Shown here: one piece after another, positions 54,011-54,818 of the stretch
Layout of the letters: the number at the start of each line of letters is the position of its first letter
Numbering within the stretch: the first letter of the stretch is position 1
Sequence record: PQ510734.1
Source: Escherichia phage A6-6
DNA length: 64,000 nt
Reading direction: 5' to 3' (one strand)
Program-made: the position numbers and the translations under genes
Notes under the pieces: generated by a model
Database searches by the model: none
What the model saw: only the letters and a program-made list of their open reading frames with translations
What the model was told of the DNA's origin: nothing

Positions 54011-54328
54011 ATGAAAACCTATAAAGAATTTATTGCAGAATCTGCTGCAGGACAACGTGTAGAAGGTGGTTATATCTGGATTGAACAAGTTGAGCCGCCA
54101 AGTCGCACTTCTACAGGTAAATGGAAAATCACTGTTGATGGTCCTGGTGGTAAACGTAGGACTCTTAAAGAAATTAATGGGTACTATGAAGAAGCTCTTT
54201 CTGATGCGGGTACTTATATGATGCAAATCATGATTAAAAACCCAGAAAATCGTTTTGCGGCTAGAGTTTTCCGCCGTATTGGAAATAAGCTTTATGATGC
54301 ATATTCTAAAAACTTCCCTAAAGAATAA
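54011..54328 (+). CDS. internal protein (IP family) with capsid targeting sequence
   Basis: N-terminus MKTYKEFIAE-S, basic protein, downstream of e as ipIII/ipII are in T4. Confidence 0.75.
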   Translation: MKTYKEFIAESAAGQRVEGGYIWIEQVEPPSRTSTGKWKITVDGPGGKRRTLKEINGYYEEALSDAGTYMMQIMIKNPENRFAARVFRRIGNKLYDAYSKNFPKE

Positions 54329-54344
54329 AAATTAAAGGAAACAT

Positions 54345-54818
54345 ATGAAAACATATCAAGAATTTATTACTGAAGCAGCTATTAATTCTCAAATTATTGC
54401 TGAATCTTTTACTGATCTTTTGAAATTTAAAAAAGGTCAGAAAATCACTGCTGTATTGGATGATGGTACAGAAGTTGAGATGGATGTACAGGGATATAAT
54501 TATGCAGTAGATGGAAAACTGTATAATAAATCTCACGCTAAATTTGATTCATTTGACGACTTTGTTAATACAGTTGAAGATGAAAAAACTCGTCGATCCA
54601 TTGCAACTGGTGATGCTAAGGTTCTTATGGCACATGGCCATGAACGCATTCGCGCTAAACAGAATAAAATGGGTGAAGATAATTTTGCATTAGTTGGTTA
54701 TCAATCTGGTAAACAAACTTATGGCTATCAACGTACTGCTACTATGTATAACAAAAATGGTAAAATTGCCTTTGTGAATAGTAAAGGTTCTATTCAGTAC
54801 GTCAAATCATTCAAATAA
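54345..54818 (+). CDS. internal protein (IP family) with capsid targeting sequence
   Basis: N-terminus MKTYQEFITE-A; second member of the tandem pair. Confidence 0.75.
   Translation: MKTYQEFITEAAINSQIIAESFTDLLKFKKGQKITAVLDDGTEVEMDVQGYNYAVDGKLYNKSHAKFDSFDDFVNTVEDEKTRRSIATGDAKVLMAHGHERIRAKQNKMGEDNFALVGYQSGKQTYGYQRTATMYNKNGKIAFVNSKGSIQYVKSFK

Follow-up and report, generated by a model that had tools for sequence, protein, structure and literature searches.

Two small reading frames lie in tandem directly downstream of the lysozyme gene e in the 64-kb stretch of DNA analysed here (called the window throughout). The window comes from a T4-like phage genome (Tequatrovirus), runs in the orientation opposite to that of the T4 reference, and has its closest database relatives at about 96–97% identity over 24 kb, with no identical record. 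In T4, the same position is held by genes for internal head proteins, which raises the question of what the two frames encode, how their products might reach a host cell and what they might do there.

Two genes downstream of e

A sequence-only reading had proposed two tandem frames of 105 and 157 codons downstream of e, and both are present, together with the repeated cassettes that precede them:

53428-53922, + strand: gene e, lysozyme (Pfam Phage_lysozyme)
54000..54046, + strand: ribosome-binding site and capsid-targeting sequence (CTS) coding cassette of ip10, direct-repeat copy 1 (D1) (direct repeat, pattern match, T4 homology)
54011..54328, + strand: ip10, Ip10 precursor, 105 aa (PP01 identity, phrog_3966)
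54334..54380, + strand: ribosome-binding site and CTS coding cassette of ip4, direct-repeat copy 2 (direct repeat, pattern match)
54345..54818, + strand: ip4, Ip4 precursor, 157 aa (Pfam DUF7412, phrog_3155, PP01 identity)

The first frame (54011-54328) starts with MKTYKEFIAESAAG and the second (54345-54818) with MKTYQEFITEAAIN, and the Shine-Dalgarno sequence AAAGGAAACA stands ahead of both. A 41-nt pattern combining the ribosome-binding site and the leader codons has two exact matches in the 64-kb window against 0.00 expected from 100 shuffles, and the 5′ cassettes of the two genes form a 54-nt direct repeat with 83% identity. Comparison with phage PP01 is also informative: all nine nucleotide differences in the 157-codon frame are synonymous, as are four of the five in the 105-codon frame. 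This argues that selection acts on the + strand frames and not on the antisense reading frames at 53939-54226 and 54318-54536.

Identity of the two proteins

By its sequence, the 157-residue protein is Ip4, a protein already named and known. It matches the ipIV product (IpIV) of PP01 at 157 of 157 residues and is 99% identical to ‘Ip4 [Enterobacteria phage K3]’ (UniProt Q38388). The Pfam family DUF7412 (PF24183) is matched at 319.4 bits (E 5.7e-96; gathering cut-off 27 bits) over residues 1-157 of a 158-position model, and phrog_3155, annotated as ‘internal virion protein’, is matched as well. A tblastn search of the phage collection finds Ip4 in 470 phage records. Phages from other genera that infect Klebsiella, Salmonella and Serratia have homologues with 61–71% identity, and an alignment of homologues of 61–82% identity retains 64 invariant columns. 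A Foldseek search of Ip4 against BFVD returned no match except Ip4 itself.

The 105-residue protein is likewise already named and known, its near-identity to a PP01 protein marking it as Ip10. It agrees with the PP01 ‘Ip10 internal head protein’ at 104 of 105 residues, the sole change (K5 for Q5) falling within the leader, and is about 70–71% identical to the Ip10 of phages SP18 and VR25. The match to phrog_3966 (E 5.8e-34) spans residues 1-105; PHROG gives that family the label ‘unknown function’, and in most GenBank records Ip10, which is found in 189 phage records (tblastn, phage collection), is entered as a hypothetical protein. Pfam yielded only sub-threshold noise for Ip10 (CsgH, E 0.089), and a structure model built from four sequences (pLDDT 48.3) was too poor for a fold search. 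A search with mature Ip10 among 1.84 billion representatives found only one real relative, a phage homologue (52% identity, 97 aa). Five weak, multi-stretch matches in unrelated giant repeat proteins (FG-GAP, RTX, filamin, Calx-beta, SdrD_B) were dismissed as artefacts of repeats or composition; at best they hint at strands like those of a beta-sandwich.

Are these proteins then versions of T4 IPIII and IPII? The sequence-only reading held that the sizes differ from those of the T4 proteins, and the actual lengths (193 aa for IPIII, 100 aa for IPII) confirm the difference. Orthology was considered and rejected, as BLASTP alignments of Ip10 and Ip4 with IPIII and IPII are limited to residues 1-12/14; an extended alignment of Ip4 with IPII is weak (31% over 77 residues with gaps) and driven by the leader. 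Searching the 64-kb window with T4 IPIII and IPII by tblastn found nothing further. Near-identity to IPII or IPIII, named beforehand as the result that would speak against the reading, is thus absent, and near-identity to the known Ip10 and Ip4 is found instead. T4-like phages are the sole source of homologues of the two proteins, their hosts being Escherichia, Shigella, Klebsiella, Salmonella, Serratia and Enterobacter. The names Ip10 and Ip4 go back to Repoila et al. 1994, as cited in a passage of PMC12373910. The genes, their leader and the shuffling of their locus have been known since 1994, and the proteins are identical or nearly so in hundreds of Tequatrovirus genomes.

Cassette exchange at the locus

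The pair is flanked by e and vs.8, where T4 has ipIII-ipII, and occupies one of two polymorphic internal-protein loci (downstream of e; between 57B and trna.4). The gene order is e-ip10-ip4-vs.8 in the window and e-ipIII-ipII-denV-vs.8 in T4, and on the evidence of gene order and of the homology boundaries the T4 block ipIII-ipII-denV is replaced by ip10-ip4. On the left, blastn homology to T4 e-ipIII continues to window position 54050, about 40 nt into the leader, and stops there, placing the breakpoint inside the leader-coding sequence of ip10. The right junction is as follows:

54818..54958, + strand: right junction of the swap; T4 homology restarts at the ip4 stop codon (54816-54818)

Position 54818 aligns with the first T4 base past the denV stop codon, and from there to 56000 the window is 96.4% identical to T4 (locus L003, 4943-3752; blastn). 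No match to denV was found anywhere in the 64-kb window. The 140 nt 3′ of ip4 consist of the T4 denV-vs.8 spacer and the beginning of the long vs.8 frame. This spacer (46% GC) was considered as a structured RNA and rejected, having no Rfam match and being accounted for by those T4 sequences.

The complete e-ip10-ip4 arrangement is present in 152 phage records, and alternative orders include e-denV-ip10-ip4 (Shigella phage A2) and e-ip10-ipIII-ip4 (VEc74). This pattern matches the cassette shuffling that Repoila et al. 1994 were the first to report for two internal-protein loci, according to passages of PMC2839356 and PMC12373910; internal-protein-associated cassettes were also described by Arbiol 2010 (PMC2839356). 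The sequence-only reading had called such loci hypervariable, which holds for a polymorphic locus, with one nuance: the variation lies in cassette content and not in sequence drift, and Ip4 itself is strongly conserved. Ip4 is also the commonest protein at the e-downstream locus, its 470 records comparing with 261 for T4 IPIII and 198 for T4 IPII (tblastn, phage collection).

Transcription of the pair

The spacer between e and ip10 carries one candidate control element:

53927..53966, + strand: early-type promoter and AT-rich stem-loop cassette in the e/ip10 spacer (sequence, RNA fold, T4 alignment)

Its -35 element is GTTTAC (53927-53932) and its -10 element TAGTAT (53951-53956), the latter lying in the loop of an 8-bp hairpin formed by AATTGTGA and TCACAGTT (53943-53950 and 53959-53966). 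RNA folding rates the hairpin as weak (overall z = -0.74). Together with the ribosome-binding site and leader, the cassette aligns with the sequences ahead of all three T4 ip genes, in the e-ipIII, ipIII-ipII and 57B-ipI intergenic regions, and the T4 record X04567 marks the homologous element as inverted repeat A/A′, giving it a potential -10 for IpIII. No relevant feature of the locus emerged from generic scans for sigma-70 promoters and terminators, the early-type promoter falling below the sigma-70 threshold; the transcription scheme thus rests on alignment with the T4 elements, from which we infer promoter activity of the cassette.

Only 16 nt separate the ip10 stop from the ip4 start, a gap that holds neither promoter nor hairpin and is the same in PP01 and SH7. 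For this reason, ip4 is probably co-transcribed with ip10, and the two genes probably form one transcription unit. Transcription of ip10-ip4 would begin in the promoter/hairpin cassette that follows e. Upstream of e, at 53394 and 53407, the perfect late promoter TATAAATA occurs twice, and read-through from both copies probably adds ip10-ip4 transcripts.

Capsid targeting and processing

Experiments on the T4 IPIII leader show that its ten N-terminal residues are enough to bring even foreign proteins into the head (PMC9026906; PMC3012670), and suppressor analysis has shown that positions 4 and 7 govern targeting and positions 8 and 10 processing (PMC9026906). The protease gp21 cleaves after Glu in L/I-X-E (PMC9026906), and GenBank X04567 records residues -10 to -1 as removed from T4 IPIII and IPII. 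The sequence-only reading had recognised an MKTYxEFIxE targeting and cleavage signal at both N-termini, and this holds: the leaders read MKTYKEFIAE↓S in Ip10 and MKTYQEFITE↓A in Ip4 (the arrow marks the predicted cut). All four CTS determinants (Tyr4, Phe7, Ile8 and Glu10) are present in both proteins, and residues 8-10 form predicted gp21 sites fitting L/I-X-E, I-A-E10↓S in Ip10 and I-T-E10↓A in Ip4. The window also encodes the machinery on which such leaders depend in T4:

15468..16277, - strand: gene 22, scaffolding core protein (Pfam T4_CASP, E 1.5e-90)
16308..16946, - strand: gene 21, prohead core serine protease (Pfam Peptidase_S77, E 1.5e-111)

Alongside these, gp67 and gp23 are encoded. 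The gp22 core is the assembly that recruits CTS-bearing proteins (PMC9026906), and gp21 is the trans-acting enzyme expected to remove the Ip10 and Ip4 leaders.

For Ip10, the predicted propeptide is residues 1-10 (54011-54040), and cleavage after I-A-E10 would leave a mature form, Ip10*, of 95 aa, 10.8 kDa and pI 9.6. An internal gp21 site at L-K-E54 of Ip10 was ruled out, as an Enterobacter-phage homologue has Asp there. The Ip4 leader is likewise residues 1-10, and a second candidate gp21 site follows at I-A-E20↓S (codon 20 at 54402-54404). E20 is invariant in 14 Ip4 homologues, with I/L/M at P3 and S/A at P1′. Mature Ip4 is accordingly predicted at 147 or 137 aa, 15.5–16.5 kDa and pI 9.1–9.3. 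Small, basic products of this kind resemble T4 IPI*, IPII* and IPIII* (pI 9.0–9.65), the mature Ip10 and Ip4 together spanning pI 9.1–9.6.

Taken in sequence, the 10-residue N-terminal CTS, through Tyr4 and Phe7, would draw both precursors into the prohead's gp22 scaffolding core, and gp21 would then cut after Glu10. In Ip4, an extra cut probably follows the invariant Glu20, by analogy with I-T-E19 of T4 IPI. The basic mature proteins would remain in the head with the DNA and be injected alongside it. A literature search for virion proteomics, N-terminal sequencing or an injection assay of Ip4 or Ip10 found nothing. By analogy with the T4 IPIII leader, we regard co-transcription, core recruitment, gp21 trimming, retention and injection as highly probable. 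The identity of the two proteins and the mechanism of packaging, processing and injection, taken jointly, can be held with good confidence.

What the proteins may do in the host

The sequence-only reading had called the pair candidate injected effectors, in keeping with the T4 CTS determinants in both leaders and with the polymorphic internal-protein locus that they occupy. The T4 proteins Ip1, Ip2 and Ip3 are inhibitors of GmrSD-type type IV restriction enzymes, each of a different one and without cross-protection, and every protein encoded at the two Ip loci has been proposed to act against some variant of the GmrSD system (PMC12373910). IPIII is active from the cytoplasm even without its CTS (PMC9391042). 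By this analogy, Ip10 and Ip4 would each bind and block, inside the cell, one host nuclease that attacks the incoming glucosyl-hydroxymethylcytosine DNA. One published experiment bears on this directly: when ip4-10 were expressed against a panel of synthesised GmrSD systems (15 groups, 8 of them active), no reproducible inhibition was seen (PMC12373910, section 10, Supplementary Fig. 9). That result lowers the case for Ip4 and Ip10 as GmrSD inhibitors, and we put the chance that each blocks one specific host nuclease, as T4 Ip1-3 do GmrSD enzymes, at about even. PDB sequence searches gave nothing credible, and domain and fold searches gave nothing indicative of function, the Pfam family of Ip4 being a DUF only.

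The two proteins may instead be packaged and injected but act on something other than GmrSD, such as another early host defence or function (a different family of nucleases, for example, or a sensor that responds to the entering DNA or to the injected proteins), a tentative reading that we consider rather less probable. None of the eight active GmrSD systems was reproducibly inhibited by ip4-10 (PMC12373910), and the occurrence of Ip4 homologues with 61–71% identity in phages of Klebsiella, Salmonella and Serratia suggests a target conserved across Enterobacteriaceae rather than a rapidly diversifying enzyme subtype. The 64 positions of Ip4 that stay invariant across Escherichia, Klebsiella, Salmonella and Serratia phages also point to a conserved target. 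Alt, another protein packaged in the T4 head, shows that cargo can differ in function, since it ADP-ribosylates RNA polymerase (PMC9026906). Weighing the other way, all three internal proteins with known targets act on GmrSD-family enzymes, the family is so extremely diverse that a 15-group panel is far from exhaustive (PMC12373910), and no domain or fold in Ip10 or Ip4 suggests another activity. It is possible, though doubtful, that Ip4 and/or Ip10 neutralise a non-GmrSD host defence, perhaps one not yet recognised as a defence system; were this so, these abundant proteins could be used as bait to discover it.

A role inside the head would call for no host target at all. Ip10 and Ip4 might be mainly structural passengers, basic DNA-binding core proteins that serve prohead assembly or charge neutralisation. 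Their basic mature forms (pI 9.1–9.6) agree with such a role, as do several properties of the T4 internal proteins: each numbers about 300 copies, they bind DNA when salt is low and touch its phosphates with their lysines, and polyheads accumulate in IPIII-minus mutants (PMC9026906; PMC3012670 for the lysines). We nevertheless find this improbable: generic charge would leave well-folded sequences with position-specific conservation (64 invariant columns in Ip4) unexplained, the free swap of non-homologous proteins at the locus would be equally unaccounted for, and in T4 the same suspicion once attached to three proteins, all of which have proved to be specific inhibitors. Still further down in probability, and to our minds very improbable, the leader could be a recombination relic and the two proteins ordinary early cytoplasmic accessory proteins, neither packaged nor cleaved. 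The pair is indeed preceded by an early-type promoter and reads in the direction of early transcription, and the leader-coding DNA clearly works as a recombination cassette; however, the leader residues are kept at the protein level across diverged homologues, beyond what DNA homology would require. Injection followed by the blocking of a specific host nuclease stays the reading that we prefer.

A third leader-bearing reading frame

A further reading frame with a similar N-terminus lies elsewhere in the window, at 48873-49346. It encodes 157 aa beginning MKSYAQFLNE↓AVLNE↓A, with the leader determinants Tyr4, Phe7, Leu8 and Glu10, and its product is basic (pI 9.4). The frame starts 35 nt downstream of a perfect late promoter of the same sequence as those ahead of e; this promoter comes after the terminator hairpin that closes the tRNA/small-RNA cluster, and T4 has no gene at the position of the frame. 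It is found in 469 records, and all 60 annotations sampled read ‘hypothetical protein’ or something equally uninformative. The Mosigvirus homologue has a leader, MKSYAEFLTE, that is more canonical still. Internal-protein genes have been described as confined to two loci (PMC2839356). Judging by its leader, this frame has the look of an internal-protein gene that has escaped recognition at a third site; if that is true, injected proteins would come from three loci instead of the two described.

Significance

The discovery value of the pair itself is small, the Ip10 and Ip4 genes, their names, their leader and their locus shuffling having been described since 1994 and the proteins standing in hundreds of records. 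Their interest lies in what they may act on. Given T4 Ip1-3, there is probably, for each orphan internal protein, a specificity of host defence still to be discovered that shapes host range, and the targets of Ip10 and Ip4 are relevant to the choice or engineering of T4-like phages for therapy. Since Ip4 is the commonest protein at the locus, it is a more representative subject than T4’s own internal proteins. Care must also be taken with public records, where positional annotation misnames internal-protein genes; several GenBank entries, SH7 for instance, label Ip10 and Ip4 ‘IPIII’ and ‘IPII’.

Comparison with known systems

The nearest counterparts are the same proteins in other phages. The ‘IpIV’ or ‘Ip4’ of K3, PP01, ime09 and JK1 is the protein encoded here, again directly before vs.8, and differs in nothing of substance; some relatives have denV or ipIII as additional neighbours. 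Ip10 of PP01, SP18 and VR25 sits, as in the window, directly after e. T4 IPIII and IPII share with Ip10 and Ip4 the locus after e, the cassette of ribosome-binding site plus leader (MKTYQEFIAE↓A), the predicted gp21 processing and the upstream promoter/hairpin cassette, and are likewise small and basic. They differ in having known targets, the GmrSD enzymes of ECOR17 and ECOR21. T4 IPI, the inhibitor of GmrSD from E. coli CT596, is also small, leader-directed, processed by gp21 and injected; removal of its propeptide at a distal I-T-E↓A (residue 19) parallels the I/L/M-x-E20↓S/A of the Ip4 family.

The regulatory unit can be compared in the same way. The early-promoter/stem-loop cassettes associated with internal-protein genes (Repoila 1994), analogues of the PeSL elements (Arbiol et al. 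2010), show the conserved unit that precedes ip10 and the T4 ip genes alike: it runs from a stop codon through GTTTAC, an AT-rich hairpin overlying the -10 and the ribosome-binding site to the leader, and the breakpoint of the swap falls inside it. No such cassette lies between ip10 and ip4 or after ip4, so the pair behaves as a single two-gene cassette.

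A probable third internal-protein locus

A third gene whose product bears a leader like the capsid-targeting sequence (CTS) of T4-type internal proteins lies in the window, at a position where T4 has no gene. The ORF and its upstream signals are as follows:

48800-48826, hairpin upstream of the ORF
48831-48838 (+), T4 late promoter, perfect match (TATAAATA)
48873-49346 (+), third leader-bearing ORF, 157 aa, pI 9.4

Flanked by the tRNA/small-RNA cluster and e.8, the ORF starts 35 nt downstream of the promoter, and its product begins MKSYAQFLNE↓AVLNE↓A, in which Tyr4, Phe7, Leu8, and Glu10 are present as in a CTS. 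A Mosigvirus homologue starts in a similar way (MKSYAEFLTE). The gene is found in 469 phage records; all 60 of the homologues sampled are annotated as ‘hypothetical protein’ or with an equally uninformative label, and the product belongs to phrog_2280, a family labelled as of unknown function. The ORF probably encodes an internal protein that has gone unrecognised, at a third locus for this class. In phage PP01, the annotated CDS of the homologue (PP01_137) is 30 codons too long.

The neighboring tRNA cluster and the second classical internal-protein locus also differ from those of T4:

46439-46508, intergenic gap of the second classical internal-protein locus, between 57B (45983-46438) and trna.4 (46509-46694)
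47464-48484, tRNA cluster of 11 genes (Gln, Leu, Gly, Pro, Ser, Thr, Met, Tyr, Asn, His, Arg)

The gap holds neither ipI nor any other ip gene, whereas T4 carries ipI and PP01 carries ip5 between the same two neighbors. The tRNA cluster has 11 genes versus 8 in T4, and no ORF for the homing endonuclease SegB lies inside it.

Ip4 and Ip10

One residue of Ip4 stands out as a candidate for further processing by the prohead protease gp21:

54402-54404, codon 20 of ip4, Glu (E20)

This glutamate is invariant in 14/14 homologues, in the context I/L/M-x-E↓S/A, and is likely a second gp21 cleavage site. The predicted cut would yield a propeptide of 20 residues, similar to the 19 residues of T4 IPI.

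Mature Ip10 (54041-54325) gave weak, multi-stretch HMMER matches to giant repeat-containing proteins to which it is unrelated (FG-GAP, RTX, filamin, Calx-beta/CBM60, SdrD_B), as well as sub-threshold matches to CsgH and filamin Ig domains. Both sets are probably artefacts of composition or repeats, and at most they hint at a beta-sandwich-like core.

Public records of this locus contain annotation problems. In Escherichia phage VEc74 (L005 1224-1810), ip10 and ip4 are separated by a third ip gene, ipIII, whose annotated CDS starts at an internal Met and so omits the leader visible upstream. In Shigella phage SH7 (L002 3112-3919), Ip10 and Ip4 are named ‘internal head protein III’ and ‘II’ from position only.

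Downstream of the internal-protein genes

54848-55498, vs.8 region, long T4 reading frame, with an in-frame TAG at 54947-54949

The TAG breaks the long frame 9 nt upstream of an ATG at 54959, leaving an ORF of 179 aa as compared with 219 aa for the long T4 form. This start is shared by the ‘alternative ORF 64.0(4), 179 aa’ of the old T4 entry X04567 and by the PP01 annotation, which points to the shorter form as the one with the functional start.

The pyrimidine-dimer repair gene denV (endonuclease V) is missing from the place it occupies in T4, downstream of the ip genes (54818-54958), and from the rest of the 64-kb window. In Shigella phage A2, by comparison, denV sits between e and ip10, preceded by the same promoter/hairpin cassette (an early-type promoter with an AT-rich stem-loop) that precedes ip10 in the window. 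Its absence here, together with the e-denV-ip10 order behind that cassette in A2, indicates that denV acts as a mobile cassette of the e-downstream locus.
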